A stretch of DNA of 62,416 nucleotides from Patescibacteria group bacterium (GCA_023473585.1 JAMCYU010000008.1:1-62416), one strand, 5' to 3'; shown: positions 1,323-21,045, counted from the stretch's first letter. Program-made: numbers and translations. Notes: generated by a model from the sequence alone, not told the origin.

Positions 1323-2870
1323 TTACTTTATGTAAACGAGGCGACCCTCATTAGTTCTTAAAAAATTCGCAAAAGAAATGTCTGTGGCTTTTTCTCTTAA
1401 CGAAGACGCCATTATTGTTTGACAATCACTGTCTCCAAAAGCAGATGGAAAAGTTGTTTCACTAATATTGACAAGAGGCGTTTCAAGATTAACCACACCA
1501 CCATAAGAAGGACCAAGATACTGATCTTTAGTGGGATAATAGATATTTACGCTAATTAATTTGTCAGGGCTGGATAGCTTAATATAATAAGCATCGATCC
1601 TTCCTTTACCATTTCCCGACGCAACTTTAGATACCATTCCCCCAAAAGAAGCAAAGATAACCGTATTTGTTTTAAGATTACGAAACGCGAGATATTTTTT
1701 TAGACTCGCTCTTTCTAAAACCTGTCCCTCATTCGGCAAAAAGGGAATGGGCAATTTTATTTCTCCCTCTCCCGCCGCCTTAAGAATTGCGCTTTCTGCT
1801 TCTTTAGCCGCCCAACCCGTAAATAAAGCTTGGTGTTTTTTAAAATCAATTTCTTTTATTCCTTCTATCAGTTCTACCCTTCCTTTCCCTTCGTTTCCTT
1901 TTTCATTCCAATAGGCAATTTTTTTACCGTCAGTATCAAGATAGGTCCAGACTTTCTTTTCCGGGTCGTATTTTTGGGTAAAACCTTCAAGTTTTAAACC
2001 TTTAAATTCCGGTATGGGAATAATTTCTTTGGCTTCTCCGGTTTTGGGGTCAACGGTGGCGATCAGTTTTTTGTCTTTGGTCCAATAGCCCATTTGTTCC
2101 ATGCCAAACCAGCCGGCACCTTTGGTCGCGATGGTGCTGTCGCCCAAATAACCTACATTCCCCTTTGAATCTTTAAAAGTCTCCTGTTTGGCCCAAATAA
2201 TCCCCGTCACTTCATTTTTCTCATCAAGAGCAAAATAGCCCCAGTTTCCGGCCAGAACCGAATCTTCCAGCCTTTCGCCGCTTAAAGTTCTTATTGAAAT
2301 CAGCAAATTGCCGTTCGTGTCTCTTTCCGAAACGATAACGCCCGAGAAAGGACGGTTATTTAAAACGTCAATTAAAGGATTTTTAAGATAATAGTCGGCG
2401 GCTTTTTGCGCCAGACTCTCTCTTTGGATATCGGGCGTCGGGGTTGGCCGGGGTTCAGGCCCGCCCACCACCGGCGGCAAATTAATAACCACGGCTGTTG
2501 GCGTCGGCGGAATCCTTGTCGGGGTCGCATCCGGTTTTAAAGTCGCTGTCGGCGAAGGTAAAGGAGTGGGGGTATCGGGTGTCGGTGTTGATTCCGGTTG
2601 GCCTCGATTACAACCTAAACCCGCAAGAGCGGCGAATAACAAACTTCCGCCTAGAAGTTCTCTTCTCCCGAGTTTTTTGTCCGAGTTATTTAAAGCCGAA
2701 ACCAAAACACCACCGGCAATAATCGCTTCGACTAATGGCTTGGGTAATTTGACTTCATCACGTTCATCAGGAAAGCTGACAAGAACATAGGTCCGGTCAG
2801 GACTTATCTTTTCCGCCAAAGGATTACTTTCTCTTTCGAAACTTAGACCCGCTTTTTCAGGTGTCTCCAT
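1323..2870 (-). CDS. Hypothetical exported or anchored protein with a Pro/Thr-rich linker (515 aa)
   Basis: Track ORF. Residues ~68-87 (GRRELLGGSLLFAALAGLGC) resemble a twin-arginine/lipobox-type signal, so the true start may be internal. A PESTPTPDTPTPLPSPTA linker and a large globular part follow. Confidence 0.6.
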   Translation of the reverse strand: METPEKAGLSFERESNPLAEKISPDRTYVLVSFPDERDEVKLPKPLVEAIIAGGVLVSALNNSDKKLGRRELLGGSLLFAALAGLGCNRGQPESTPTPDTPTPLPSPTATLKPDATPTRIPPTPTAVVINLPPVVGGPEPRPTPTPDIQRESLAQKAADYYLKNPLIDVLNNRPFSGVIVSERDTNGNLLISIRTLSGERLEDSVLAGNWGYFALDEKNEVTGIIWAKQETFKDSKGNVGYLGDSTIATKGAGWFGMEQMGYWTKDKKLIATVDPKTGEAKEIIPIPEFKGLKLEGFTQKYDPEKKVWTYLDTDGKKIAYWNEKGNEGKGRVELIEGIKEIDFKKHQALFTGWAAKEAESAILKAAGEGEIKLPIPFLPNEGQVLERASLKKYLAFRNLKTNTVIFASFGGMVSKVASGNGKGRIDAYYIKLSSPDKLISVNIYYPTKDQYLGPSYGGVVNLETPLVNISETTFPSAFGDSDCQTIMASSLREKATDISFANFLRTNEGRLVYIK

Positions 2871-2911
2871 GATTTCGCTCTCTTTATCCTATAACATTTA
2901 CGGCTTGCTTG

Positions 2912-3127
2912 TCAAATCCTGGGTTTTTGATCCGGCGGATATGCTGTATTGCTATTTAAGTAGGCTAACTCAGTTGCTTTTGCTAGATCATCAAGATTAT
3001 GGCTTCGCGACGTAAACACAGGAAGCATTTCAGCGCTCAGGCCAATGGGAGGCATACGCACCATTCCTATGCAATAAAATTTATCATCCAGGAAATATAT
3101 AATGACGCTTTTTTTGGCAAAACTCAT
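2912..3127 (-). CDS. Short immunity-like paralog B4 (71 aa from ATG; track lists a TTG-extended 77 aa)
   Basis: MSFAKKSVIIYFLDDKFYCIGMVRMPPIG matches the N-terminal motif of B1-B3 (YY.D..FYVVG.V..PP). It lacks their C-terminal half. Confidence 0.45.
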   Translation of the reverse strand: MSFAKKSVIIYFLDDKFYCIGMVRMPPIGLSAEMLPVFTSRSHNLDDLAKATELAYLNSNTAYPPDQKPRI

Positions 3128-3131
3128 ATGA

Positions 3132-3251
3132 TTACGGTACCTCAACTATAACCAGTGTAACATCTTTTGTTTGCGCGTAATCCTGCATCTCTAAAAGTTC
3201 TTTACTTGTTGCTTCAGTGGCTTTTCCAGCTGAAATTCCTATTTCTATGTA
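3132..3251 (-). pseudogene. Start-less remnant of the toxin-like gene 3' end (copy 3)
   Basis: Translates to YIEIGISAGKATEATSKELLEMQDYAQTKDVTLVIVEVP*. Two in-frame TGA codons lie directly upstream. The 47 nt at 3139-3185 are identical to 4342-4388. Confidence 0.6.
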
Positions 3252-3260
3252 TCATCAAGA

Positions 3261-3749
3261 TCATATCTTCTTATCTGTGTGATATACTTTACTCAAAATT
3301 TCTTCTGCTATATTCTGAGCAGAAAGCGGTGGAAGTAATATTTTTCTCGCGCCATCTATTCCTCTCCACGCCTTTCCTTCTCCCAAATCTGGCTCATTAG
3401 GATCATAGGACTCCTGAGGCGATATTTCCACACTTCCGTCTTCGTACCAATCAACCTCCCATAACTTTGCGGCCTTAGCCCAAACTTTTCCGTAATCTCC
3501 ATCCCATGGCGTCACATCTGTTCTTATTTGGTGTTGAAAATAACGCTCCTTACTTACATCACTTCCTAACCGCGCAGATTCTATGGCCTGTGCTAATTTT
3601 TTACCATCTGAAAACTGTACCATATATACAGGTTCTACCTGACGACAAAAACCAAAAGGCTGGATGCGAACCGACCCCACAACATAAAACTGATCGTCTA
3701 GGTAGTAGACAGAAACCTCGTGAATATTATCACCCCTTGCTTCAATCAT
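3261..3749 (-). CDS. Immunity-like paralog B3 (162 aa)
   Basis: Track ORF. It shares VYYLDDQFYVVGSVRIQPFGF, PWDGD..KVW, LWEVDWYEDGSVE and YDPNEPDLGEGKAWRGI with B1. Confidence 0.65.
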   Translation of the reverse strand: MIEARGDNIHEVSVYYLDDQFYVVGSVRIQPFGFCRQVEPVYMVQFSDGKKLAQAIESARLGSDVSKERYFQHQIRTDVTPWDGDYGKVWAKAAKLWEVDWYEDGSVEISPQESYDPNEPDLGEGKAWRGIDGARKILLPPLSAQNIAEEILSKVYHTDKKI

Positions 3750-3751
3750 AA

Positions 3752-3892
3752 TTATGGCACCTCACAAATAACCAACGTTACATCTTTACTTTGAGCATAG
3801 TTTTGCAATTCCTCCAACTTTTCAATCTGTTCTGGGCTAGCTTTCCCTGCAGGAATACCAATCTCTACATATCTATCTTGAAAATTTTCTTC
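3752..3892 (-). pseudogene. Start-less remnant of the toxin-like gene 3' end (copy 2)
   Basis: Translates to EENFQDRYVEIGIPAGKASPEQIEKLEELQNYAQSKDVTLVICEVP*. It has no start codon and ends 2 nt before the B3 ATG. Confidence 0.65.
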
Positions 3893-3893
3893 T

Positions 3894-4331
3894 TTACAGC
3901 TGTTTTAATATCTCCCTGGCAATATCTTTTGTAGAAACGGGTGGAGAGAATGTTTTTTCTGAAATTGTTTTCCATTGCATATCTCCCCTATACATTTTAT
4001 CGGGGTTTTCAGTATCCATATCAACGCTTCCATCTTCCTTCCACCATAAAGACCATAACTTTAAGGCGTGGTTCCACACCCTGTTTTTTTCTCCATCCCA
4101 TGGTTTTATTTCTAGATTTGCATGGTCCGGGTCAAAATGAGATTTACTTACTATGTGAGCTGAATCGATTGCTTGAGAGAGTTTTTCAATACTGAAATCT
4201 TGTAATTTTATCACAGGGTTAACATGTGCCCAGACAAAAATAGGTGGAAGCTCTACCGAACCAACCACATAAAGAATTCTATTAAATAAGTAAATGGATA
4301 CATGATGATACGTTTTTTTAATTTCAACCAT
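3894..4331 (-). CDS. Immunity-like paralog B2 (145 aa)
   Basis: Track ORF. It has YLFNRILYVVGSVELPPIFVW, KPWDGEKNRVW and WWKEDGSVDM. Its C-terminus SPPVSTKDIAREILKQL is identical to that of B1. Confidence 0.65.
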   Translation of the reverse strand: MVEIKKTYHHVSIYLFNRILYVVGSVELPPIFVWAHVNPVIKLQDFSIEKLSQAIDSAHIVSKSHFDPDHANLEIKPWDGEKNRVWNHALKLWSLWWKEDGSVDMDTENPDKMYRGDMQWKTISEKTFSPPVSTKDIAREILKQL

Positions 4332-4334
4332 AGA

Positions 4335-4475
4335 TTATGGCACCTCAACTATAACCAGTGTAACATCTTTTGTTTGCGCGTAATCCTGTAGTTCATAAAG
4401 CTTTTCAATCTGTTCTGGGCTAGCTTTCCCTGCAGGAATACCAACTTCTAAATATCTATCTTGAAAATTTTCTTC
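4335..4475 (-). pseudogene. Start-less remnant of the toxin-like gene 3' end (copy 1)
   Basis: Translates to EENFQDRYLEVGIPAGKASPEQIEKLYELQDYAQTKDVTLVIVEVP*. It ends 3 nt before the B2 ATG. Confidence 0.65.
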
Positions 4476-4476
4476 T

Positions 4477-4935
4477 TCACAGCTGTTTTAATATCTCCCT
4501 AGCAATATCTTTTGTAGAAACGGGTGGAGATAAATGTTTCTTGGCACCCTTTATACTCCTCCAAGCCTTACCTTCTCCCAAATCTGGTTCATTAGGATCG
4601 TAGGGTTCATCAAGCGACATGTCCACACTTCCGTCTTCATTCCACCATATTGACCACGATTTTGAAGAATTATTCCAAACTCTTTCATGTTCTCCGTCCC
4701 ACGGTTTTATTTCTGGGTTTGCATGATCAGGATGAAAGCGTGACTTACTTATCAGTCGAGCCACCCCTATAGCATCCGCAAGTTTATCTCTATTGTGGTT
4801 TTTTACTGTAATAATAGGATTTACTTGCCTCCACACAAAAATAGGTGGCATTTCGACCGCCCCCACAACGTAAAACATGTCACTGAAATAATAGACAAGG
4901 ACAAGGTGGGCTGTTTTTTTTATTGGCTCAGTCAT
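4477..4935 (-). CDS. Immunity-like paralog B1 (152 aa from MTEPIKK; track lists 164 aa from 4971)
   Basis: Track ORF. The start at 4935 avoids overlap with the upstream stop at 4949-4951. It has the same motifs as B2 and B3. Confidence 0.65.
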   Translation of the reverse strand: MTEPIKKTAHLVLVYYFSDMFYVVGAVEMPPIFVWRQVNPIITVKNHNRDKLADAIGVARLISKSRFHPDHANPEIKPWDGEHERVWNNSSKSWSIWWNEDGSVDMSLDEPYDPNEPDLGEGKAWRSIKGAKKHLSPPVSTKDIAREILKQL

Positions 4936-4948
4936 ATTTATTATTTTA

Positions 4949-5383
4949 TTATGGCACCTCCACGATGACAAGTGTTACATCTCGACTTTGTGCATAATCT
5001 TGTAATTCATGAAGCTTGGCAGTCTGTTCTGGGTTGGTTCTTCCTGCAGGAATACCTAGCTCTAAATACCTGTCCTGAAAATTACGCCCTCTTTCAAAAA
5101 CCATATCTTTCCATCGTCCATAAGTAAATCCACTAAGTTCATCAATATATTTTCTCACTGTCGAATCAACTTCTCTTATATCTTGATATGATTTTAGTGC
5201 TAAGTCAAGCGTCTTCATGCTTGTTGCTGTCATTGCATCAATAACGATATCATCAACTACGGGACAGTTACTACCCAAATTAGCCCTACGCAACTGTTCG
5301 TAATCATGTCCACGTGCATCTATTCCTTTTTCGCTCCACAAAGTATCTCTATGTAGTTTAGTTTGCAATTCGTCATGACTCAT
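4949..5383 (-). CDS. Small toxin-like protein A, possible PD-(D/E)xK nuclease fold (144 aa)
   Basis: Track ORF. GHDYE...PVVDD...TSMK gives an E/D/SxK arrangement. Its last 47 codons are the parent of the three remnants. It sits directly upstream of the immunity-like array. The family assignment is not verified. Confidence 0.5.
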   Translation of the reverse strand: MSHDELQTKLHRDTLWSEKGIDARGHDYEQLRRANLGSNCPVVDDIVIDAMTATSMKTLDLALKSYQDIREVDSTVRKYIDELSGFTYGRWKDMVFERGRNFQDRYLELGIPAGRTNPEQTAKLHELQDYAQSRDVTLVIVEVP

Positions 5384-6994: not shown

Positions 6995-7423
6995 TTAAGT
7001 TTGTTTTAATTTTTTCTCTATAAAATAAAAAAGCTCTTCCGCATCAAAAAGGGCCTGTTCTGTTTCCTCTTTTGAATAATCAATAATGGCATCAGCCGGA
7101 TACTTCGTTTCAATGAAATATTCGTTAAGTATTTTACATTGTTTTTCGAATTGCAAAAAATCCCGATCTTTATCCACGCACATTGTCAAAAGCAAAGGAA
7201 GAATATGAATTTTAGGAAGAAATTCCAACCCTTTGGCTAAAAGATAGGCTTTAAGAGCCTTCTCGGTTGCTTGATGGCAAAAATAACATGTCGTATCCGT
7301 ATAACCGCCATGACGATTATTCAAAAATCCCGTATCAAGATCACGCCTGGCTTTTAATAGCCAATCTTCATAATATTTAGATTCGCGAAACTTTTTCTTC
7401 ACAGAAAAGCTTTGCTTAACCAT
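6995..7423 (-). CDS. HEPN domain protein (toxin half of a HEPN/MNT pair)
   Basis: 142 aa and helical, with CHQATEKALKAYLL and a KYP motif. It overlaps the upstream nucleotidyltransferase gene by 8 nt. Confidence 0.75.
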   Translation of the reverse strand: MVKQSFSVKKKFRESKYYEDWLLKARRDLDTGFLNNRHGGYTDTTCYFCHQATEKALKAYLLAKGLEFLPKIHILPLLLTMCVDKDRDFLQFEKQCKILNEYFIETKYPADAIIDYSKEETEQALFDAEELFYFIEKKLKQT

Positions 7424-11434: not shown

Positions 11435-12529
11435 TTATTTGTTTATTGTGTACACCATTCCGCCCAGATTTTTGACCTTGCCTTTAATTTCCATTAAGGT
11501 CAAAAGGCTGGCAATCCTTCCTGCTTCCATACCAGATATTCTAACAAGACTGTCAATATGCAGACGTTCGTTTTCCAAAATCTGCAGAATTTTTTCTTCC
11601 TCGGGATTTTCCGGGATAATTTTTTTTGCCTTTTGACTTTTAATTTTTGATTTGATGTCAAGTTCTTCCAGTATATCAGAAACATGATAAACCAATTTCG
11701 CCCCTTCTTTAATCAGAATCGAGGAGGCTGCCGAAAGATAACTGGTAATCGGCCCGGGCACGGCAAAAACCTCACGACCCTGGTTCGCCGCATCCCGGGC
11801 GGTAATTAAGGCTCCGGAGTCCTCGGCGCCTTCAGTAACGACCACGCCTAAGGAAAGACCGGCGATAATCCGGTTGCGGGCAGGAAAAATACCTTTGGCC
11901 ACGTATTGTCCGGGCGCCACTTCGGAAACAACCGCACCATGCAAAATTATTTGTTCATAAAGGGCTTTATTCTCCGGTGGATAGACCAAATCGACTCCGC
12001 AGCCTAAGACGGCAATCGTCCGGCCGGCGGCCTCAAGAGCGATTTTATGAGCTAAAGAATCAACCCCTCTGGCCAAGCCGGAAACGATGGTCAGGCCCGA
12101 GGCGACGAGATCGCGGGTCAAAATTTCGGTCACTTCCCGGCCGTAAGCAGAGATTTTTCTGGTGCCGACAATGGCCACGGCCAGCTCGTCTTCGATTTTG
12201 ATTTGCCCCTTTATATATAGTACCGGCGGACAATCGCTAATCTGCCGCAATGAATCCGGGTAATTTTTGTCTTTTAGGGTTAAAATCGTGATGCCTTTTT
12301 TCTTCACTTCTTCGTAAAAACCTTGGGGGTTAAATTTTTGCCGGAAGATTAAAAATTGAGAAACGAGGTTGGCCCCAAGGCCGGTTTTTAAAAGTGTCTC
12401 TTCGTTAGCTTCATAGGCTTTTTGCGCTTTGCCGAAATATTTTAAAAGAAGTTTGAATCTTTGCGGGCCGATGCCGGAGAAAAAATTAAACGCCAACCAA
12501 AAAGGCAGGTCTTTTTGCATTAATAACAA
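11435..12529 (-). CDS. dprA: DNA processing protein DprA/Smf
   Basis: Motifs GLARGVDSLAHK and VLGCGVDLVYPPEN, with a C-terminal winged-helix-like tail. Confidence 0.9.
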   Translation of the reverse strand: MLLMQKDLPFWLAFNFFSGIGPQRFKLLLKYFGKAQKAYEANEETLLKTGLGANLVSQFLIFRQKFNPQGFYEEVKKKGITILTLKDKNYPDSLRQISDCPPVLYIKGQIKIEDELAVAIVGTRKISAYGREVTEILTRDLVASGLTIVSGLARGVDSLAHKIALEAAGRTIAVLGCGVDLVYPPENKALYEQIILHGAVVSEVAPGQYVAKGIFPARNRIIAGLSLGVVVTEGAEDSGALITARDAANQGREVFAVPGPITSYLSAASSILIKEGAKLVYHVSDILEELDIKSKIKSQKAKKIIPENPEEEKILQILENERLHIDSLVRISGMEAGRIASLLTLMEIKGKVKNLGGMVYTINK

Positions 12530-12549
12530 TTTAACAGGTTATTTTAAAT

Positions 12550-12578
12550 TTGACAAGGCAAATAATGTGCCTTATAAT
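12550..12578 (+). promoter_or_regulatory. Sigma70-type promoter for the small-protein genes P1-P3
   Basis: TTGACA (12550-12555), a 17-nt spacer, then TATAAT (12573-12578), 40 nt upstream of the P1 ATG. Confidence 0.55.
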
Positions 12579-12618
12579 CGGCCAATCCTAATTTCTGTCC
12601 GGAAAGGAGAAATAAAAG

Positions 12619-12840
12619 ATGCCAAGTCCTATCGAAGCAAAATCAGTCGTCTTGGTTCTTTTTGGAGTTGACCCCAGAACAGGCAACCGTACGGTTAGTC
12701 CGAAAACACGCCAGTGTCCTCAAGGCTGTTTGGGAAATAGAGCGTTTGACCCTGATAAACAATGCTATTCGGGCATGACGAAACGTGGTTTTAATTGCGA
12801 CGGTAAAGAAATTGTGCCTAATCCTTCTAAAAATATATAA
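12619..12840 (+). CDS. Small protein P1 (73 aa)
   Basis: Track ORF. It is preceded by CTGTCCGGAAAGGA (12595-12608), which includes an AAGGAG SD. N-terminus MPSPIE. Contains CPQGC. Confidence 0.5.
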   Translation: MPSPIEAKSVVLVLFGVDPRTGNRTVSPKTRQCPQGCLGNRAFDPDKQCYSGMTKRGFNCDGKEIVPNPSKNI

Positions 12841-12872
12841 AGTTTTATAAACTGTCCGGAAAGGAAAAATAA

Positions 12873-13091
12873 ATGTCACCACATTTTGAAACGGTTAAGG
12901 GCGATAATATCATGCTTTTCCATAATCCAATCTCGCAGGATAAAGAAGGAGCGAGAAGAAGACACGCCGACGCTCAAAACTATGCCAATGAACACCAGGT
13001 CGAAGTTGTGGAAGTTGCCGACGGTCGGGGCCAACCTTGTGCTGCGTGCAAGGATATAAGCAATCGTTATCAACCGCAAACTCAAAAATAA
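12873..13091 (+). CDS. Small protein P2 (72 aa)
   Basis: Track ORF. It is preceded by an identical CTGTCCGGAAAGGA (12852-12865). N-terminus MSPHFE. Contains CAAC. Confidence 0.45.
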   Translation: MSPHFETVKGDNIMLFHNPISQDKEGARRRHADAQNYANEHQVEVVEVADGRGQPCAACKDISNRYQPQTQK

Positions 13092-13115
13092 AAGATTTTA
13101 AGAGAAAGGAAATTT

Positions 13116-13346
13116 ATGCCACCAGCTCTTGAATGTCGTCTTTGTCACTATAGAATTAAAACAACTAAAGAACCGGCAACAGTAAAACAAATGGTAAATC
13201 TGCTTACGGCAACCAAAGTCCATGAAGCCGCGGCTGGACATGTAAATAATCAAGAAGAAGAACCCATAAGCCACTGGAATTATTATCCAGAAACACCCAA
13301 AACGCCCGCTTTCAATTCCAAAGACGTCGTTGTTATCAACGGTTAA
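13116..13346 (+). CDS. Small protein P3 (76 aa), paralog of P4
   Basis: Track ORF with SD GAAAGGAAA. MPPALECRLCHYRIKT..ATVKQM..HEAAA aligns with P4 MSPAIECKDCGKRFKT..ATPEEM..HAAV. Confidence 0.5.
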   Translation: MPPALECRLCHYRIKTTKEPATVKQMVNLLTATKVHEAAAGHVNNQEEEPISHWNYYPETPKTPAFNSKDVVVING

Positions 13347-13357
13347 ACCATTCTTCC
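13342..13357. repeat. 16-nt exact copy of the mrdA 3' end (att-like scar, copy 0)
   Basis: GTTAAACCATTCTTCC is identical to 18989-19004. It overlaps the P3 stop codon. Confidence 0.6.
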
Positions 13358-13382
13358 GGCACACTGCAACTTTACTAGCTTT

Positions 13383-14021
13383 TTATAGAAAAAATTCTAC
13401 GTCTTGATTATAAAGATTTGAAGGTTTTTTATTTGGGTGACGTTTTAAATATTGAGCAATTAAGTTGAACCCAACTGTATATCCTGCCCACCGAGGAATT
13501 TTCTCTTTTTTTGATCCAAAAAACCAAGCCTCATGATTGTAAGACAAATCATTATACTGCCCTTTGGCACGTTTGCTTAGATCTCTTAATTGTTTTTTAT
13601 CAAGTGCTACATCCCATTTTTCTGGTCTTTTTTTATTTACTTCGATATCAAAATGGTCCGCTAGCCCTTCGTTTATAAGAGCTCCAAATAGTGTCTGTTT
13701 TTTTCTATATCTATATTTTCTAATGCAATGGTACAATTCATGAGCGATTATCCTCGGAAGATTTTCTTTTAGACTTTCTTCAAGTTTATTGAATTCAGGA
13801 TTTATAGAAATCATTATAAGATTTACTGTTGCGGAATATCCGCCTACCCCCAAATGTTGAATTATTCCCTTTGTACCACCGTCATAAAAAATAATATCGA
13901 CATTATCTATCGGGATAAGTTTAACAATAGAATCTATGGAAGACTTTGAAACCTTTTTTATTGCATGTTCAAAAGGTTTTAATCTGCCACTCGCATGAAG
14001 TATTTGAGGTTTGATGTTCAT
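13383..14021 (-). CDS. DUF2268-like predicted Zn metalloprotease
   Basis: AHELYHCIR (HExxH) followed by NEGLADHF. Confidence 0.7.
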   Translation of the reverse strand: MNIKPQILHASGRLKPFEHAIKKVSKSSIDSIVKLIPIDNVDIIFYDGGTKGIIQHLGVGGYSATVNLIMISINPEFNKLEESLKENLPRIIAHELYHCIRKYRYRKKQTLFGALINEGLADHFDIEVNKKRPEKWDVALDKKQLRDLSKRAKGQYNDLSYNHEAWFFGSKKEKIPRWAGYTVGFNLIAQYLKRHPNKKPSNLYNQDVEFFL

Positions 14022-14123
14022 AATTATATTATTAAAAATAGACTTCAGACTTTTTACCTTGTGACGTTTGAGTTTCTAAAAACTTGACAGGCTTCTGTCA
14101 GATATTTAAAAGGAATTAAACTT

Positions 14124-14648
14124 CTATTGATAACGAATAATTTTCCCTAATACAATTTCACTTTCATATCCATAATTAGTTTTAACAGATTTTACTTTTT
14201 CGCCTTCTACTATATATCCAAGATTTAGAAAAAACCTCAAGGTTTTAGTCGATGTTTTGCGAATTGATACTTCTATTTTTTCTATTTGTATTTGAGGAGC
14301 CATTTTTTCTATCTGAAAAATTAATTTATTTCCAACGTGATTATTTTGATATTCAGGTAATACTCCTATTAATAACAAACCAATGTGTTTTTGAAACTTT
14401 AAAGATCTTCTTGTTAGGGTCACCCAACCGATAATTTTTTGATTAATCAGTGCGAAAATCGTAATATTATGTTTCATATTTTCTTCAAGATAGCCCTCTA
14501 GATTTTCTTCGTTAAATGGATACATATCGGTTAAATAGTTTAACCCATCGTTCATTAAATTATTGAACAATTCAATTGCAGATGGTTCATCTCCGTGTTG
14601 GGCTATTCTAAAAAACAGATTATCCATATTTTTACTTTTTGCATTCAT
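14124..14648 (-). CDS. GNAT family N-acetyltransferase
   Basis: 174 aa with the acetyl-CoA pocket region LLLIGVLPEYQNNHVGNKL. Confidence 0.75.
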   Translation of the reverse strand: MNAKSKNMDNLFFRIAQHGDEPSAIELFNNLMNDGLNYLTDMYPFNEENLEGYLEENMKHNITIFALINQKIIGWVTLTRRSLKFQKHIGLLLIGVLPEYQNNHVGNKLIFQIEKMAPQIQIEKIEVSIRKTSTKTLRFFLNLGYIVEGEKVKSVKTNYGYESEIVLGKIIRYQ

Positions 14649-15258
14649 TATTAAGAATTGAAAATAACAAAGAGTCTCTATACGTCTGATTTCTGGGCAT
14701 CCATATATTGCCCCTTATGTATCCTTCATATTTCATGCCGGTTTTTTGCATCGTCCTTTTTGACGAAATATTACCTGGATCACATGTTGCCCAAATTCTG
14801 TGTAATCCCAGGTCTTCAAATCCAAAATTCAACATCGCCGATTGAACCTCTGTGCCTAGTCCATTGCCCCACTCTTCTTTTTTTAGGAAAATTCCCCACT
14901 CCGCAGATCGATTCGCCATATTCACTTGAAGGCTTGTATATCCTATTAATTCTTTTGACGTTTTTAACATCACTGCTAATCCGTAATTGGTTCTGGGGGT
15001 TCTCTTTTGATTTCCAATAACCCTTAATATAAAAGACTTTGCTTGACCTATCGTAATATATGGTCTCCAAGATACATATTTTGTTACGTCTGGATCAGAA
15101 AATATCTTATACAATGCTTCGGCATCGTCTAGAGCAAATTCACGAATAAATAATCGTGGGGTTATTAATACCAGCTCTTTTCTTGTTGGGAATTCGTTTT
15201 CAATATTTGTCACTATATTTATTACCACACTACGATATTCTCTCCCCCATACTAACAT
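14632..15258 (-). CDS. GNAT N-acetyltransferase, RimJ/RimL-like
   Basis: ITPRLFIREFALDDAEALYKIFSDPDVTKY and WGNGLGTE are typical of the RimJ/RimL subgroup. It overlaps the downstream GNAT gene by 17 nt. Confidence 0.8.
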   Translation of the reverse strand: MLVWGREYRSVVINIVTNIENEFPTRKELVLITPRLFIREFALDDAEALYKIFSDPDVTKYVSWRPYITIGQAKSFILRVIGNQKRTPRTNYGLAVMLKTSKELIGYTSLQVNMANRSAEWGIFLKKEEWGNGLGTEVQSAMLNFGFEDLGLHRIWATCDPGNISSKRTMQKTGMKYEGYIRGNIWMPRNQTYRDSLLFSILNNECKK

Positions 15259-15351
15259 GTTTAAGAGGGAATATATTTGTTCGAATCAATTTTATTTACC
15301 TTGCTCTTCTCACTTTTCCGCTGGTTACGGCTATTTTTTTAGCTCTATTTT

Positions 15352-15474
15352 TCATGTATCCATCGTCACAAGAACATCCTGAGCTGTCTGAATTGCATTC
15401 ACAATCTCTGGCCCCCCAAATTCTTTTGTGTAGCTTACTAATGGCCGAGCATTTTTCATTTCTATATTAATCAT
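15352..15474 (-). CDS. Unlisted 40-aa ORF between the SagB-like and GNAT genes (weak precursor-peptide candidate)
   Basis: Hand translation gives MINIEMKNARPLVSYTKEFGGPEIVNAIQTAQDVLVTMDT*. AGGAGG lies 11 nt upstream, inside the SagB stop region. It has no Cys and few Ser/Thr, so it is doubtful as an azole substrate. Confidence 0.3.
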   Translation of the reverse strand: MINIEMKNARPLVSYTKEFGGPEIVNAIQTAQDVLVTMDT

Positions 15475-15482
15475 TTAATATA

Positions 15483-16244
15483 TCACCTCCTTTCAAAAAT
15501 TTGCCTTTTACCAATTGCTAAGACCATTATGGTGGATTCTTCTATTCCGTCAATATCAAGTAAATTATTGATTTTATCATCCAAAAAACCACCTATTGCA
15601 CAACAGCCTAATTTTAATGACGTAGAAACAAGGTAGGCGTTTTGAGACATGTGCCCAGCATCAATCATGACAAATCGATATCCTCTAAGGCTATATTTCA
15701 TCTCTGACCGCCAAAAAACACTTGTAAATAGTAAAAGCAAGGCTGCGTGTTTTATCCATGGCTGATCAAAGCAGCTAAATATATTAGATTCAAAATTCTT
15801 CCCCGTCCAAAGATATTCTAAAGAATGGCTAATTACATTATAGTGATATATACCTTTATTCAGATTGTTGATATTTAGTATTACTGGATAAACTTCAATC
15901 GGATATCGCGCTCCCGCAGAGGGATAGAATCTATTATTTTTCTCCTTTCTTTGACCGAATGAATAAAAGAGTAAAGAAGAAAAAACGTTTTGGCTCAAAG
16001 ACTCATTGGAAAAATCACGAATACTAGATCTTTTGATTAGACACTTATCTAAAGAGGGTAAATCTTTTATAATGGGGGCTAATTTTATTTTATTAAAACG
16101 AGGGTAGGTTTTATAATGAATTTCCGTCCATTCTCTCGGCCATTCGCCTGGCTTATGTTTATTACCGACAAAATCTCTAGTTTTTGTCTTATCGTGAAAT
16201 TCTTGCGTAGTCGAATATTTAATATGTGGCAAGTTTTTATCCAT
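15483..16244 (-). CDS. SagB-type (nitroreductase-fold) dehydrogenase
   Basis: Hallmark FYPSAGARYPIEVY, within a 253-aa nitroreductase-like layout. Confidence 0.85.
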   Translation of the reverse strand: MDKNLPHIKYSTTQEFHDKTKTRDFVGNKHKPGEWPREWTEIHYKTYPRFNKIKLAPIIKDLPSLDKCLIKRSSIRDFSNESLSQNVFSSLLFYSFGQRKEKNNRFYPSAGARYPIEVYPVILNINNLNKGIYHYNVISHSLEYLWTGKNFESNIFSCFDQPWIKHAALLLLFTSVFWRSEMKYSLRGYRFVMIDAGHMSQNAYLVSTSLKLGCCAIGGFLDDKINNLLDIDGIEESTIMVLAIGKRQIFERR

Positions 16245-16249
16245 GTTTA

Positions 16250-17599
16250 TTATATAAAAGGGTGCGGAATATTATTAATAGGCTTCTCAACCTTATAACC
16301 AAGTAGTTTTGGAACCTCGTATAGTCTTTTAACCCCTAAGTATTTATATGCCTCGTCAACATAAAATGGGTAGAGTTCGGGAATAATAACTTTTATTACA
16401 TAAAATCCTGTAGCTCCTATAGGCTTTGGGGTTAAATTTACAAAATATGTTCTTAAATGATTTTCTTCTAATATTTTTAAGACTTCTTTTAAGATTGGTC
16501 CAGAATCGTAATTTGTAAATTTGGGGTATTTTTTTAATTTTTTCGGTTTTTGTTTTGTCCAGAAATCAAGGTACTTCAATTTAGATTGATCATACCAATA
16601 CATCCCTCTATCTTCTGCACTAGATATTTCTTCTGGATTTATTTTTTGAGTTTTTATATGATGATATTCGTAATATTCTCTCATCCATCCAATGACATGT
16701 AAACTTTCTTCAAAAGAATTGCAAATGGCTTTGTATGGGTCAAGATTAGATTTAAGCCCGATAGTAACAGGGTCACCGATACCAGTTCTATCTATCAACA
16801 GTGTGGCAAATGAAGGAATATTTATATCTGTAGTTATGTCAATAACATGTGCCTCTAGCCTATATCTTTTAGTAATATCAATAATCTTTTGGATTGATTT
16901 TCTATTTATTTTAGATAAATCTACTTTATAACCATGTAATCTCTTCAAATAGTGGATCATGAATGAATCTCTTTCAATTGTTTCATATATTCCTCTTAAA
17001 ATAGCTGCTGCCTTACTTCCTCCGCCGGCTGTTCCAGTGCTTATGTTTAACCTTATATATCTTTCTCCCGCTATCGGTCTATAGTTAAAATAGATCAATT
17101 GCGCCGGTATGAATTTACTGGTTATTGTCTCTGGGCTTATTTCAAAACCCTTCATCCATGAAAAAACAGAATTGTTGTCAAAATTAAATATCTCGAATCC
17201 TTTTTCCAAAAGTTGTTTTTTTGAAAAAGCCGAAAAATCTTTTGGGTCGACCGCTTTGTTTTTTCCTAATTCAGAGAAACTATTCTTTATAAAATTTGAT
17301 TGAAAATATGAACTAGAATAATATCTTTCGAGAGCTTCAGCGACACACTTTAAATATGCTTCCTTTTCAGAAAATAAAGATGTTCCGCCGCTATTGTCTC
17401 GGCTTCTTGGATTTCCGTCACCCGTTTTTTTAGAGACTTCTTTTACCCTACATATAAAATGAAAAAATTTAGGCTCATCATTATACAGGGGAACTCTATA
17501 TATATTTTCGATAAAGCTCAACTGGGGAATAATTTTACAAAAGGAAGTAAGCAACTTGTCAATCGATTTTTCCGAATCGCGGAATAAAAGCTGGTCCAT
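16250..17599 (-). CDS. YcaO-domain cyclodehydratase-like protein
   Basis: The YcaO core starts at SGGTSLFSEKEAYLKCVAEALERYY. The Pro-rich C-terminal tail IPHPFI resembles the PxPxP end of azoline-forming YcaOs. No E1-like or Ocin-ThiF partner was seen. Confidence 0.85.
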   Translation of the reverse strand: MDQLLFRDSEKSIDKLLTSFCKIIPQLSFIENIYRVPLYNDEPKFFHFICRVKEVSKKTGDGNPRSRDNSGGTSLFSEKEAYLKCVAEALERYYSSSYFQSNFIKNSFSELGKNKAVDPKDFSAFSKKQLLEKGFEIFNFDNNSVFSWMKGFEISPETITSKFIPAQLIYFNYRPIAGERYIRLNISTGTAGGGSKAAAILRGIYETIERDSFMIHYLKRLHGYKVDLSKINRKSIQKIIDITKRYRLEAHVIDITTDINIPSFATLLIDRTGIGDPVTIGLKSNLDPYKAICNSFEESLHVIGWMREYYEYHHIKTQKINPEEISSAEDRGMYWYDQSKLKYLDFWTKQKPKKLKKYPKFTNYDSGPILKEVLKILEENHLRTYFVNLTPKPIGATGFYVIKVIIPELYPFYVDEAYKYLGVKRLYEVPKLLGYKVEKPINNIPHPFI

Positions 17600-17612
17600 A
17601 TATAATAATTAG

Positions 17613-17641
17613 ATTATACTACCAATGTAAATTAAATTCAA
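17613..17641 (-). promoter_or_regulatory. Promoter of the YcaO operon (near-leaderless)
   Basis: On the minus strand: TTGAAT (17641-17636), a 17-nt spacer, then TATAAT (17618-17613). The YcaO ATG at 17599 lies only 13 nt after the -10 box. Confidence 0.5.
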
Positions 17642-17700
17642 CAAATTGTATGGGTTGCGGATTTTTTCGCCATTCTTATAAAATAGACTCTCTTTACCTT

Positions 17701-17739
17701 ACCTGTTAAACCACTCTTCCAAAATCTTTTTGGCGATCA
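17701..17739. repeat. 39-nt copy of the mrdA 3' end (att-like scar, copy 1)
   Basis: ACCTGTTAAACCACTCTTCCAAAATCTTTTTGGCGATC has 2 mismatches against 18985-19023. On the minus strand it still encodes ..AKKILEEWFNR*, the same as the true mrdA C-terminus. Confidence 0.8.
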
Positions 17740-18396
17740 CGGTTCGACCGCTGTCCTACCCAATTCCTTGGCTTTTTCACGAAAGAAATTTTTTATTTTA
17801 TCTAGGGTCAAGGGCTTAATCATTTTCGGCAAAGTTTCAAAATCCTCAACCTTCAAAAAATCCGAGGACAGATTATAAGCCTCAATTTCCTGATGAAATT
17901 TTATTCGTACTCCTTCAATCAAATCCCAAAGACCAAATTGCGGTTCAAGATAGTAAAGATCAACAAAATCTTTGATGTCTGTTCTTCTAATAATGGTTGA
18001 AAGTTTATTAATCGCAATGTCCAGAAGGCTATCAACGTAAATTCCGTCCTGCAAAATACTTTTTTCAACTCTTTTATAAGAATAATTATTAAAGTCAATT
18101 TTTAAAAACGGCTCTTTGCCAAAATCAAGAAAAAACATATTAACTGTTTCTATTGTTTCTACTTGATATTTAAAATGGTATTCCTCGCTCAAACTATCCA
18201 TAAAGGAAATAATAATTTGCGGGTCGAATTTCTTTTCTGAAAAGATATCAATATCTTCTGAATAACGATGGTGAAGATAAAATTCCGATAAAGCCGTACC
18301 GCCGGTAAAATAGAAATTTTCGCGGATAAAATCGTTTGTCCTTATCCCATCCAGAATGGTTTTTTGTTCTGGGGTGAGGATTGATATTTGCCCCAT
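17737..18396 (-). CDS. AbiEii/DUF1814-type nucleotidyltransferase toxin
   Basis: FTGGTALSEFYLHHRYSEDIDIFS signature. Confidence 0.8.
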   Translation of the reverse strand: MGQISILTPEQKTILDGIRTNDFIRENFYFTGGTALSEFYLHHRYSEDIDIFSEKKFDPQIIISFMDSLSEEYHFKYQVETIETVNMFFLDFGKEPFLKIDFNNYSYKRVEKSILQDGIYVDSLLDIAINKLSTIIRRTDIKDFVDLYYLEPQFGLWDLIEGVRIKFHQEIEAYNLSSDFLKVEDFETLPKMIKPLTLDKIKNFFREKAKELGRTAVEP

Positions 18397-18608
18397 ATTA
18401 AAAGCTCCATAAGCCGTCTTCTCACGGCAAAAAGATTAGGAACTAATTTGTCCCAGTATTTTTTGACCAAAGACAGTTTTATTTTTTTCTTGCCTGGGCC
18501 GTAATTTAACATTCTCTCCAGAATAAAAATCCGACCCTTTTCGGTTTTTTGCAGTTCCTTCTCATCATAATCCCAAAGATAAGCAGAGCTTTTCTGCGAA
18601 TAAACCAT
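18342..18608 (-). CDS. Small partner protein of the AbiEii-like gene (putative antitoxin)
   Basis: 88 aa with YLWDYDEKEL..ILERMLNYGP. From memory this pattern often sits upstream of AbiEii genes. It overlaps the NTase ORF by 55 nt. Confidence 0.5.
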   Translation of the reverse strand: MVYSQKSSAYLWDYDEKELQKTEKGRIFILERMLNYGPGKKKIKLSLVKKYWDKLVPNLFAVRRRLMELLIWGKYQSSPQNKKPFWMG

Positions 18609-18695
18609 ACGGAGATATTATCTCAAATTTACCTTGACTTGACAAGGAGGAGGAGGAGTAAGATATGGAAAATTCTGTCCGGAAAGGAAAAAATT

Positions 18696-18968
18696 ATGTC
18701 ACCAGCCATTGAATGCAAAGATTGTGGTAAAAGATTTAAAACGCCAGTTACAAACAAAGCCACCCCCGAAGAAATGGCAAGGATGATTAACGAGGCTTGT
18801 TGCCATGCTGCTGTCGAATGTTTAGGCGGTCTTTTTATGAAAGGCCCATCAGGAAAACCACACGCAGAAACAATAGCAGCGACTGGGTATTGGTTTGAAC
18901 CAGTTACCGGCCAAACCCAATATGGATTTGAATTTCATCAGAAAAAACCTATCACTAAGGAAAAGTGA
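18696..18968 (+). CDS. Small protein P4 (90 aa), paralog of P3
   Basis: The start is placed at MSPAIECKDCGK because CTGTCCGGAAAGGA (18675-18688) and TTGACAAGG (18642-18650) precede it exactly as for P1. The track ORF from 18549 would run through this leader. Confidence 0.55.
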   Translation: MSPAIECKDCGKRFKTPVTNKATPEEMARMINEACCHAAVECLGGLFMKGPSGKPHAETIAATGYWFEPVTGQTQYGFEFHQKKPITKEK

Positions 18969-18982
18969 TATGCTTTTTTTAT

Positions 18983-20632
18983 CTACCTGTTAAACCATTC
19001 TTCCAAAATCTTTTTGGCAATCGGCGCGGCGACGTTGGAACCTTCACCGCCTCCTTCCACCAAAACGGTTATTGTTAATTCGGGTTCGTCTGCAGGGGCC
19101 GCCTTCGCTGACTTTTCGGCGGGCAAGGGGGCGAAGACCGTAAACCAGGCGTGGGTTTTATTCTGCGGATCGCCGTATTCCGCCGTCCCTGTCTTGCAGG
19201 CCACCGAAATTTTTCTCTCTCCGAACTCCGAACTCTGAACTTTAAACTCAAAAAACGGCCAACCCGTCCCCCCGGTCGAACACGCCTCTTTCATCCCCTC
19301 CTTAATTAAACCGATGGTTTCTTTTTTAAGGCCCAAATCTTTACAGTCCTGGTTTTTCAGTAAAGTCGGCCGGCAAAGCTTGCCGCCATTGGCAATGACA
19401 TTCGTCCAAAAATTCGCCTGGAGGGGCGTCACCTGCAAATCTCCCTGACCAATGGCTAAATGATAGGTGTCGCCCAAATACCACTCGTCCCCGCGGGTTT
19501 TTTTGCGCCACTCCGGCGTCGGCATGACCCCGGCCGCTTCACCGGGCAAGTCAATACCTAAAATTTTGCCGACGCCCATTTTTCCGGCCCATTGAGCCAA
19601 CTTTTCCACTCCCACCCACTCCCCGACTTTATAGAAATAAATGTCGTTTGATCTTTTTAAAGCCGTGACAATATTTAAAAGACCATCGGTTTTGCCGTAC
19701 TGCAGCCAAAACCAATTAGGATATTTATAAGGACCAATCGTAATCACCCCGGTATCCTCAACCAAAGTTTCCTTATCAATTTTTCCGGTTTCCAAACCGG
19801 CGGTGGCCGTGATAATTTTGAAAATTGAACCGGGCGGATAAAGACCGGAAATCGTCCGATCAAACATCGGTTTTTCCAAATCTTCCAGCGTTTTTTGACT
19901 GATTTCGTTAGGATCAAAAGTCGGTGAGGAATATAAGGCTAAAATTTCGCCGGTTTGCGGTTGGGAAACCAAAACGGCGCCCGTTTTTCCTTCCAAAGCG
20001 TCAGCGGCGACTTTTTGAAGGTTTAAATCAATCGTCAAATCCAGTGCCTCTCCGGCAACCGGCTCAATCTTACCTAAAGTTTTAAGTTTAGAGCCGGCCG
20101 CGTCAACTTCAATCAATTCTTTGCCGTCAACACCGCGCAAGGTTTTTTCATGTTGCTCCTCAACACCGGTCCTGCCTTTTAAATCGCCCAGTTTATAATC
20201 CAAGCTTTTTAAGCTTTCGGCGTCAAGTTCCTTATCGGTAACCTCGCCGATATAGCCCAAAACATGAGCTAAAATTCCTCCCCAGGGATATTCTCTTTTT
20301 AAGTCCGTGATTAAACGCCCCGCCTCCGTTCCTCCTTTGGTTTCCATCGCCAAAGCCTCTTCGCGGCTGATGACTTGGCAATCATTTCTTCTTCCCGCTT
20401 GATTGCCGGCATCACATTTTTTATAAACCGGCGTGTTTCTGACCAAAACCTGGCGGTGACGATCATAAATAATGCCCCGAGGGGCTCTGATAAATTTTTC
20501 CTGAATGCGATTACCCTCGGAAAGATCGCGGAAATAACCACCCCGAACCACGGTTAAATCAATTAAACGGATGATCAGAAACCAAAAAGAAAAAATTAAA
20601 AGAAGATAGAAAGGTAAATAGCGCCATCTCAT
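18983..20632 (-). CDS. mrdA: Penicillin-binding protein 2 (elongation transpeptidase)
   Basis: N-terminal TM anchor, then the SxxK (GSIFK), SxN (RSNDIY) and KTGT motifs. Confidence 0.9.
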   Translation of the reverse strand: MRWRYLPFYLLLIFSFWFLIIRLIDLTVVRGGYFRDLSEGNRIQEKFIRAPRGIIYDRHRQVLVRNTPVYKKCDAGNQAGRRNDCQVISREEALAMETKGGTEAGRLITDLKREYPWGGILAHVLGYIGEVTDKELDAESLKSLDYKLGDLKGRTGVEEQHEKTLRGVDGKELIEVDAAGSKLKTLGKIEPVAGEALDLTIDLNLQKVAADALEGKTGAVLVSQPQTGEILALYSSPTFDPNEISQKTLEDLEKPMFDRTISGLYPPGSIFKIITATAGLETGKIDKETLVEDTGVITIGPYKYPNWFWLQYGKTDGLLNIVTALKRSNDIYFYKVGEWVGVEKLAQWAGKMGVGKILGIDLPGEAAGVMPTPEWRKKTRGDEWYLGDTYHLAIGQGDLQVTPLQANFWTNVIANGGKLCRPTLLKNQDCKDLGLKKETIGLIKEGMKEACSTGGTGWPFFEFKVQSSEFGERKISVACKTGTAEYGDPQNKTHAWFTVFAPLPAEKSAKAAPADEPELTITVLVEGGGEGSNVAAPIAKKILEEWFNR

Positions 20633-21045
20633 CTTTCTTGGTTTATCTTAGGAATTTTTTTAAAAAACGGCAAAAAGAAAATAATCAAGACTGAATTTAC
20701 CAGTATTTGCCAGGGAATTAAAACTTGCTTAAAAAGCCAGTGATCAAGAAAAACCGTGATTAAGGATACCGGCCATAAAAAAGCGACTTTATCGGCCCGA
20801 AAGCGATTTTTATAAACATAAATTAAAAAACTGACGGTTAAGAAAAAAAGACTGGAAGAACCCAAAGGTTGACCTTTAAGAATGTCCAAAATAAGACCGG
20901 CGAAAAAGGCCACGACAAAGCCTTCCTCGGCCACTTTTAAAGCCGACCACAAGACAATAACCAGCAAAACCAGGTTCAAAGAAGTCACCGTTGCCTCTAA
21001 CAACGAAAAGAAAAAAATAAGAGAAAAAAGAAAGATTAAGGACAT
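20629..21045 (-). CDS. mreD: Rod shape-determining protein MreD
   Basis: 138-aa polytopic protein between mreC and mrdA, with 1-4 nt overlaps at both ends. Confidence 0.7.
   Translation of the reverse strand: MSLIFLFSLIFFFSLLEATVTSLNLVLLVIVLWSALKVAEEGFVVAFFAGLILDILKGQPLGSSSLFFLTVSFLIYVYKNRFRADKVAFLWPVSLITVFLDHWLFKQVLIPWQILVNSVLIIFFLPFFKKIPKINQER

Follow-up and report, generated by a model that had tools for sequence, protein, structure and literature searches.

In a 62,416-nt stretch of DNA from a Patescibacteria group bacterium (GCA_023473585.1, JAMCYU010000008.1:1-62416; referred to as the window in the following), the final codons of mrdA, the cell-wall gene for penicillin-binding protein 2 (PBP2), recur twice downstream of the intact gene. 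The three copies bracket two cargo segments, a thiazole/oxazole-peptide cluster and an AbiE-like toxin pair with a small antisense gene. Whatever enzyme was responsible, we consider it highly probable that DNA has been added serially at the mrdA terminus. As to how it was added, we lean towards a model of repeated "3'-end displacement", in which the interval between mrdA and dprA would be a hotspot that grows from the mrdA side. The host is a Gottesmanbacteria-like member of the Microgenomates within the Candidate Phyla Radiation (CPR/Patescibacteria), a group with tiny genomes whose acquisition of foreign genes is little understood. Our scans for repeats and composition covered the window, and those for recombinases the window and two related loci.

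Three copies of the mrdA 3' end

The features that define the locus are the following:

18983-20632, minus strand: mrdA (PBP2), with PBP_dimer and Transpeptidase domains; by synteny the last gene of the mreB-mreC-mreD-mrdA block
18984-19022, minus strand: copy 3, the live mrdA 3' end, encoding ...PIAKKILEEWFNR* (stop codon 18983-18985)
17700-17738, minus strand: copy 2, an apparent 39-nt scar of a former mrdA end, reading IAKKILEEWFNR (stop TAA 17699-17701)
13336-13357, minus strand: copy 1, an apparent 22-nt scar of an older mrdA end, EEWFNR*, with a 16-nt exact core at 13342-13357
11435-12529, minus strand: dprA, the far border of the hotspot, which directly follows mrdA in most relatives

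Copies 2 and 3 share the 39-mer TACCTGTTAAACCA[T/C]TCTTCCAAAATCTTTTTGGC[A/G]ATC and differ at its two ambiguous positions. The first-pass annotation of this DNA had already described this repeat with its two mismatches, and apart from a correction of its coordinates by one base to the left, the description holds. It had also taken a 16-nt core as the trace of a third copy; that copy is real and in fact longer, comprising 22 nt in frame with a stop codon (GAA GAA TGG TTT AAC CGT TGA). On the minus strand, all three copies thus encode EEWFNR followed by a stop in frame, with the end codons AAC AGG TAG in copy 3, AAC AGG TAA in copy 2 and AAC CGT TGA in copy 1. The copies also abut the genes beside them: the stop codon of the AbiEii gene overlaps the first bases of copy 2, and that of the small gene P3 falls within copy 1.

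The end codons and the two variable positions can be compared with the live mrdA ends of three related loci described below, L075, L081 and L084. Bases 17708-17738 of copy 2 are identical to the live end of L075, the nearest relative, at 31 of 31 positions. Likewise, copy 2 has the L075 allele at both positions that distinguish it from copy 3, which in turn has the L084 allele (ATT, GAA). Finally, the CGT TGA of copy 1 recurs at the live mrdA end of L081 (AGC CGT TGA). Judged from these alleles and their order, the three copies look like successive generations of the mrdA end, with the oldest lying furthest from the gene.

This arrangement is unusual within the window, where only mrdA and one paralogue pair, among 54 genes, have a long second copy of their own 3' end. 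The nine kilobases from 12001 to 21000 were recovered unchanged in the Logan assembly L001 (run SRR10267473), and the three-copy structure is therefore not peculiar to one assembly.

Several trivial or alternative origins of the repeats were considered and rejected. An assembly artefact is ruled out by the identical 9-kb Logan sequence and by the repeats being shorter than a read. Chance and a dispersed repeat unrelated to mrdA are likewise ruled out within the window: a second 39-mer match appeared in 0 of 100 shuffles, and the 16-mer GTTAAACCATTCTTCC, with an expected count of 0.13 at two or fewer mismatches, is found at three sites only in the 62 kb (13342, exact; 17705, one mismatch; 18989, exact). 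A transposon target-site duplication does not fit repeats of 22, 24 (in L075) and 39 nt, found with neither a transposase nor terminal inverted repeats. An Xer/dif-type insertion is unlikely, because the repeat core does not have a dif-like layout and because the cumulative GC skew drops steadily over 9-23 kb without a turning point. A match of 16 of 20 bases at 13090-13109 is inverted and A/G-rich and was judged to be due to chance; no credible older scar was found between the small genes P1, P2 and P3. Neither the leader of these genes nor the repeats had an Rfam match, and the only tRNA genes of the window lie at 31.5 kb.

We also noted a perfect palindrome, CCAAAAAGATTTTGG, inside the conserved coding end of mrdA (18993-19007). 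The 39-nt scar begins just 5' of it, while the 22-nt scar and the 24-nt scar of L075 begin just 3' of it.

Related loci

Searches with the PBP2 sequence recovered loci from GTDB species genomes (26) and from JGI metagenomes (46), which all belong to Microgenomates and are 38-58% identical to the query. As these are distant (58% at most), they were used for synteny and as controls, not as empty sites. A protein search for PBP2 added one relative at 87% identity and a group at 60-68%. In most loci with mrdA and dprA on the same contig, the gene order is mreB-(PAP2-like)-mreC-mreD-mrdA-dprA-topA, with a gap of -19 to +105 nt between mrdA and dprA. In a minority of Microgenomates loci, two giant secreted proteins, an antitoxin/PIN-like pair, membrane proteins or a 705-aa protein are inserted at this point; the mrdA-dprA junction is thus a place of recurrent, unrelated insertions. 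A second copy of the locus's own mrdA end further downstream was found in none of about 35 loci checked. The inserted junctions are those of L002/L031/L058, L023, L028, L029, L040 and L073, none of which has a duplicated mrdA end.

The picture changes in the closest relatives. L075, whose mrdA is 87% identical to that of the window, lies on a 787-kb contig (GCA_040960625.1) and has the order mrdA, five small antisense genes (a88, b77, c70, d71 and e73), dprA, topA, with neither the YcaO cluster nor the AbiE pair between mrdA and dprA. It does, however, have a 24-nt duplicate of its own mrdA end, TTGGAAGAGTGGTTTGGAAGATAA, which corresponds to GGAAGAGTGGTTTGGAAGATAA with two preceding T. The live end spans 11621-11644 and the second copy 12102-12125, just before the stop of b77, and the two bracket a 0.46-kb cassette with a single gene, a88. 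The coding sequences of a88 and of P4, the small gene next to mrdA in the window, are unrelated, but 74 nt of their promoter and leader are 84% identical. At 64-66% identity, a single small antisense gene or a pair of them converges on mrdA in L077/L078, L080 and L081, none of which has a duplicate. An mrdA that faces a convergent small antisense gene is thus the simple state of this subgroup, and the large cargo of the window is a gain. We note in passing that GCA_040960625.1 holds two mreB-mrdA-dprA loci, L075 and L081; since their PBP2s (P0001 and P0007) are 87% and 64% identical to that of the window, this bin seems to comprise more than one organism.

The nearest relative of the AbiEii protein (85% amino acid identity) is encoded on L084, a locus whose mrdA product is only 62% identical to that of the window. 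Its order is mreD, mrdA, a gap of 58 nt, a short partner gene, AbiEii, a decayed copy of an mrdA end and a HicB/HicA-like pair. The decayed copy, GTTTAAAAAATTTGAAAAAGTGGTTTAGCCGCTAG, sits right after the AbiEii stop, as in the window, and the cassette and its scar can be aligned as one: window positions 18583-17707 and L084 positions 2417-3290 are 82% identical over 877 nt, compared with 67-72% for the mrdA DNA of the two loci. The L084 scar ends in ..WFSR-stop, whereas its live mrdA end reads ..WFRR-stop. The ..WFSR* ending is that of P0013, the protein most like the L084 PBP2 in both parts of the alignment and sharing a large distinctive insertion with it. The next AbiEii relative, at 62% identity, has an unrelated neighbourhood. 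The shared cassette and scar indicate that AbiE moved horizontally and landed behind mrdA, with a scar of like kind, in two lineages. Behind the AbiE scar of L084, the HicB-like/HicA-like pair (3354-3880) has its own promoter; toxin-antitoxin modules are thus stacked behind mrdA in this lineage, too.

Taken together, these loci bear out the proposal of successive acquisitions at the mrdA terminus made in the first-pass annotation: L075 is free of both cargoes and has its own duplicate, L084 has AbiE and a scar behind mrdA, and the mrdA-dprA interval shows a presence/absence polymorphism bounded by repeats, whose absence from relatives that annotation had named as grounds for refuting the proposal. 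In the window, in L075 and in L084 alike, displaced remnants precede older DNA, and what was gained last adjoins the live gene.

A mosaic mrdA

The repeats are not the only sign of exchange at this gene:

18983-19316, minus strand: mosaic 3' tract of mrdA (its last ~250-330 nt), of an ancestry unlike that of the rest of the gene

Identity between the window and L075 amounts to 88.9% from mreB through most of mrdA, but falls to 77.0% in the last 243 nt of mrdA. Among distant lineages, by contrast, no part of the gene is better conserved than this one. A maximum chi-square of 32 supports the breakpoint (reached in 0 of 300 permutations), and triplet tests place it at 19237-19316 (p 6e-4 to 2e-9). 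On the protein level, the first ~460 PBP2 residues of the window are 91% identical to L075, 65% to L084 and at most 70% to anything but L075, whereas for the last 85 residues the values are 73% (L075), 85% (L084) and 84% (P0002).

Indels follow the same pattern. The C-terminal allele QSSEFGERKI.VACKTG is common to the window, L084 and P0002, and the allele K--DKQIETACKTG to L075, P0004 and P0005; an insertion of L075, PVPASDSGNQHIKVDQ, is shared with P0011 and P0013, and that of the window resembles the one in P0010. The mosaic identities and the indel alleles indicate that the 3' end of mrdA was exchanged between lineages. By these sequence comparisons, the mrdA end of the window is closest to the PBP2 of L084, the lineage with the same AbiE cassette.

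The two cargo segments

The gene content of both segments is as the first-pass annotation had described it. The presumably older cargo comprises the following features:

13358-17698, minus strand: segment 1, a thiazole/oxazole-peptide cluster resembling those for thiazole/oxazole-modified microcins (TOMM-like; Pfam, NCBIfam)
13383-14021, minus strand: DUF2268 zinc protease (Pfam)
14124-14648, minus strand: GNAT acetyltransferase (Pfam)
14632-15258, minus strand: GNAT acetyltransferase (Pfam)
15296-15474, minus strand: precursor-like gene, between the SagB gene and the GNAT genes
15483-16244, minus strand: SagB-type dehydrogenase (TIGR03605, 154.7 bits; cut-off 78.4)
16250-17599, minus strand: SagD-type YcaO cyclodehydratase (TIGR03604, 236.5 bits; cut-off 219.25)
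17613-17641, minus strand: promoter-like site (promoter scan)

Segment 1 is AT-rich, as had been noticed from the sequence: its GC content is 0.326 and that of the AbiE pair 0.345, compared with 0.407 +/- 0.040 (standard deviation) for the other window genes, and the 4-kb windows starting at 13001 and 14001 have the largest tetranucleotide distance from the profile of the window. The best relative of its YcaO protein is only 50% identical. No SagC/E1-like partner for YcaO was found in the segment, where its neighbours are the two GNATs and the DUF2268 protease. In the precursor-like gene, a run of six G (15412-15417) separates two frames, one with a leader, MKNARPLVSYTKEFGG, and the other with a Cys/Ser-rich core, ARDCECNSDSSGCSCDDGY... 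(in full, DCECNSDSSGCSCDDGY). L082, an unrelated genome, has an intact homologue of 65 aa behind its SagB gene. The split may reflect a pseudogene, phase variation at the tract or a sequencing error in the homopolymer.

The presumably younger cargo is smaller:

17739-18982, both strands: segment 2, the AbiE pair and P4
17737-18396, minus strand: AbiEii nucleotidyltransferase toxin (PF08843, E = 2.5e-16; 21 PADLOC AbiEii models)
18342-18608, minus strand: 88-aa AbiEii partner, overlapping AbiEii by 55 nt
18617-18645, minus strand: AbiE promoter, TTGTCA-17-GATAAT (promoter scan)
about 18635-18695: leader/promoter of P4, homologous to that of a88 in L075
18696-18968, plus strand: P4, with its stop 15 nt from the mrdA stop

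AbiEi-type antitoxins have a winged-helix domain and are larger than the AbiEii partner found here, which comprises 88 residues (79-82 in its relatives) and has no AbiEi match; its 55-nt overlap with AbiEii is kept in L084. By its comparison with the relatives, segment 2 is not a clean unit, because L084 has the AbiE pair behind mrdA without P4, and because the promoter and leader of P4 are homologous to those of the unrelated a88 at the same position in L075.

The small antisense genes

The remaining part of the interval, next to dprA, is occupied by small genes that we refer to as P genes:

12530-13346, plus strand: array of small antisense genes, with a consensus promoter at 12550-12578
12619-12840, plus strand: P1, with leader CTGTCCGGAAAGGA
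12873-13091, plus strand: P2, with leader CTGTCCGGAAAGGA; orthologue of c70 in L075
13116-13346, plus strand: P3, without this leader; orthologue of b77 in L075

The P genes and their counterparts in the relatives are small, evolve fast and run antisense to the mreB-mrdA-dprA direction. The leader is common to P1, P2 and P4 and absent from P3, and the P gene proximal to dprA has a perfect TTGACA-17-TATAAT promoter, kept throughout the subgroup. Most of them begin with the motif M-[S/A/P]-[P/S/T]-x-[hydrophobic]-E, where the hydrophobic position is one of [IVFLA]. Beyond leader and start motif, the sequences of this family (in the window and at 11732-13149 of L075) are unrelated or evolve rapidly. 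Among 1.84 billion representative proteins, P2 has only four relatives, and no P protein matched anything in Pfam, NCBIfam, PADLOC, PHROGs or the PDB. As had been observed, P3 and P4 each adjoin a copy of the mrdA end, the stop of P3 lying in copy 1 and that of P4 15 nt from the mrdA stop. They share their N-terminal 25-30 residues (MxPAxEC..C...K) and are otherwise barely alignable. In the displacement model outlined below, P3, by the oldest scar, and P4, by the live end, would be convergent mrdA neighbours from two ancestries rather than duplicates that arose in this genome.

How the locus may have grown

In the model that we lean towards, the incoming DNA would come from another lineage and comprise the 3' part of mrdA together with the downstream cargo of the donor. 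The left crossover would occur by ordinary homologous recombination within mrdA. The right join would fall inside the strongly conserved last 22-39 nt of the resident mrdA, either where a scar that follows the incoming cargo provides short homology, or through microhomology, that is, by homology-facilitated illegitimate recombination. As a result, mrdA would stay intact with an imported end, and the old end of the resident would be shifted downstream, where it would remain as a scar ahead of the older DNA. In the window, such a history might have started from an mrdA that converged on P3 and whose end is now copy 1; the low-GC TOMM cluster would then have come with a new mrdA end, now copy 2, and finally the AbiE pair, probably along with P4, with the present end, copy 3. 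A scar behind a cassette could act as the right-hand homology arm in the next recipient, and such a portable scar would explain the spread between lineages that share no long identical stretch here other than the conserved end of the gene. Of the readings considered, this model agrees best with the in-frame scars that match live ends of other lineages, the mosaic mrdA tract, the AbiE cassette and scar found also in L084, the lack of mobility genes in the sequence scanned, the foreign composition of the cargo and the orphan-immunity array elsewhere in the window. The order of events, uptake by natural transformation and the nature of the right join are what we infer from this arrangement.

Several points weigh against this model. 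Copy 1 of the window and the second copy of L075, apparently independent, start at the same base (GGAAGA...), and the AbiE scars of the window and L084 both begin right after the AbiEii stop. A site-specific recombinase would leave a fixed scar boundary, whereas illegitimate joins would share one only at a local hot spot or through common descent. The boundaries flank the palindrome CCAAAAAGATTTTGG, which could be bound by a protein or could simply be a place where illegitimate joins occur readily. Moreover, homology-facilitated illegitimate recombination, as published, usually deletes recipient DNA instead of duplicating it, and the right-hand join of the model is inferred and not observed. 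No single event can be assigned to the mosaic tract, which may be older than the insertions or may stem from later recombination that moved the assembled island between strains. An unlinked integrase is possible, as only part of the genome was examined. Finally, only one genome exceeds 70% mrdA identity, so that few data bear on the order of the events and on their independence.

Recurrent boundaries (GGAAGA twice, the AbiEii stop twice) would be expected if site-specific integrative elements had accreted in tandem, a reading that we regard as the main rival, though a rather unlikely one. The mrdA end would then be an attB, at which a tyrosine recombinase inserts circles whose attP provides a replacement end; the copies would represent attL, a hybrid att and attR, and the integrase genes would have been lost, as in cis-mobilizable elements (CIMEs), or always encoded elsewhere. 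The att-like interpretation of the first-pass annotation was of this kind; it has been weakened, but several observations speak for it: each segment lies between direct repeats of the mrdA 3' end, the copy next to the gene restores the frame, and unrelated cargoes (TOMM, AbiE, a88) occupy one site in three lineages with mrdA 62-87% identical. Precedents exist in the ssrA islands of Dehalococcoides (PMC3146451) and in ICESt1-type CIMEs (PMC5704250). What does not fit is that, as the annotation had itself stated for the window, no integrase was seen: we found no integrase, resolvase, transposase or recombinase among the scanned open reading frames of the 62-kb window or those with precomputed Pfam matches, and neither the genes tabulated for the 21.6-kb L075 locus nor L084 included an integrase, resolvase or transposase. 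Furthermore, the L075 'element' would measure 0.46 kb with one small gene, the repeats are 22, 24 and 39 nt long with two different left boundaries, and the replaced stretch of mrdA reaches 250-330 nt upstream of the repeat, beyond the att core, which an att crossover leaves unexplained. Neither the mrdA-end motif nor the AbiE cassette was found in viral contigs, which also speaks against a phage or plasmid source. Displacement and accretion are not exclusive, however; an integrase could account for the first insertion and homologous recombination for the spread.

Two further readings were considered. The shared N-terminus of P3 and P4, each beside an mrdA-end copy, might suggest that the site where a P gene meets the mrdA end was duplicated locally in tandem, then diverged and received cargo in between. 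This alternative, raised in the first-pass annotation, is essentially excluded. It predicts similar DNA after each copy, but nothing is shared between the DNA after copy 3 (P4, AbiE) and that after copy 2 (YcaO); no P gene adjoins copy 2; at 95% identity, the 39-mer has diverged far less than P3 and P4; the Arg and stop codons differ among the three ends and correspond to alleles that are live in other lineages; and L084 has the AbiE and scar arrangement without any P gene. More in keeping with the data, although still quite improbable, is the import of 13358-18982 in one step as a composite island from a donor in which it was already stacked, leaving one acquisition in place of two. Both segments are low in GC (0.326 and 0.345), L075 has neither of them, and whole-composite transfer after accretion is documented for other systems (PMC5704250). 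On the other hand, the allele of copy 2 is that of the nearest relative (31 of 31 bases in L075), which fits a resident end better than a donor scar, the AbiE cassette occurs without the TOMM cluster in L084, and the stacking would still require two events somewhere.

A more far-reaching idea, which we consider speculative and on balance improbable, is that the conserved, partly palindromic mrdA end (…GCCAAAAAGATTTTGGAAGARTGGTTT…) is a dedicated gene-capture site in these Microgenomates, where promoter-equipped cassettes are added singly beside an essential gene. The addition may be the work of an unlinked, unrecognised recombinase, or may proceed free of integrases, with the scar as a portable homology arm in natural transformation. 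If so, the locus would be an integron-like platform without intI or attC, and might account for the way in which CPR bacteria with their reduced genomes gather genes for defence and antibiotics.

Significance

Read as a record of stepwise acquisition, the mrdA locus would preserve three generations of one gene end, each with its cargo, and lineages that are only ~62% identical in their core genes share one toxin-antitoxin cassette. If the joins are driven by homology, the conserved end of an essential gene serves as a landing pad without the need for mobility genes, which would be relevant to the spread of defence systems and peptide-antibiotic clusters among uncultivated bacteria. Should the additions instead be due to an unlinked integrase, mrdA would be a new target for integration and the segments would be cis-mobilizable elements. 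In both cases, the processes are already known from other bacteria; what is new is the clean example, the CPR host group and mrdA as the gene involved.

A second array in the window

An array of a better known type is present in the same window:

4949-5383, minus strand: CDI_toxin_EC869-like gene, at the head of an orphan-immunity array (2912-5383)
4477-4971, minus strand: 164-aa immunity-like gene of the orphan array
3894-4331, minus strand: 145-aa immunity-like gene of the orphan array
3261-3749, minus strand: 162-aa immunity-like gene of the orphan array
2912-3145, minus strand: 77-aa immunity-like gene of the orphan array

The four immunity-like genes are paralogous and spaced 583-620 nt apart, and each is preceded by a 124-nt remnant resembling the 3' end of the toxin gene (3130, 3750, 4333 and 4947). 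The final 43 nt of the 145- and 164-aa genes are almost identical. By this layout, 2912-5383 is a textbook orphan-immunity displacement array, with a toxin domain in the variable 3' part and putative cognate immunity genes among the retained ones.

Elsewhere in the window, we noted a HEPN-domain protein (6995-7423) and two sets of B12-binding radical-SAM enzymes and methyltransferases (36543-40936 and 49318-51403), one of them with a SPASM-domain enzyme. These sets adjoin very large proteins of unknown function and may be further peptide- or glycan-modification clusters.

Comparison with known systems

Where conserved core genes flank a hotspot that is free of integrases, an ordinary double crossover in both flanks replaces the cargo and leaves no duplicated ends. 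The mrdA-dprA interval resembles such hotspots in that many Microgenomates have unrelated insertions there (toxin-antitoxin pairs, giant secreted proteins, membrane proteins) with no mobility genes nearby; in contrast to them, it has retained old ends and old cargo. It also differs from an integron array, as no integrase was found and the repeats are direct copies of a coding end and not attC-like hairpins.

The accretion of ICEs (integrative and conjugative elements) and CIMEs is a closer match. Accretion of this kind at fda, involving ICESt1 and CIMEs, was reportedly described by Pavlovic in 2004. For fda of Streptococcus thermophilus, ICESt1-type accretion with CIMEs is described in PMC5704250, and in Dehalococcoides, tandem islands at ssrA have 20-bp repeats, with 15 of them lacking an integration module (PMC3146451). 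As in these systems, tandem segments at mrdA are bounded by direct repeats of the 3' end of a target gene that stays intact, some segments have no integrase, and low-GC cargo interrupts a conserved synteny. Unlike them, the mrdA locus has no cognate integrase in the sequence examined, its repeats vary in length and boundaries, its target is mosaic hundreds of bases upstream of the repeat, and the L075 'element' measures a mere 0.46 kb.

The displacement arrays of polymorphic toxins offer the other close parallel. Anchor-driven sequential displacement has been proposed for type VI secretion system (T6SS) effector-immunity, rhs and contact-dependent growth inhibition (CDI) arrays, with homology-facilitated illegitimate recombination as the candidate process (PMC5361080); for rhs, for cdiA-CT/cdiI orphans and for the T6SS arrays of Vibrio, passages of Kirchberger 2017 (PMC5361080) cite Jackson 2009 and Poole 2011. 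The mrdA locus differs from such arrays in that its anchor is a housekeeping PBP2 and not a toxin, its remnants are scars of 22-39 nt and not orphan toxin tips, and its cargo (TOMM, AbiE, small ORFans) is unrelated to the anchor, has its own promoters and includes no cognate immunity genes. It resembles them in that new DNA seems to enter at the conserved end of a resident gene used as a homologous anchor, that older material is shifted downstream with a remnant of the gene end, that growth proceeds from the gene-proximal side with modules shared horizontally, and that the 3' part of the anchor is exchanged along with the downstream module, as suggested by the C-terminal 85 residues that the window shares most closely with L084.

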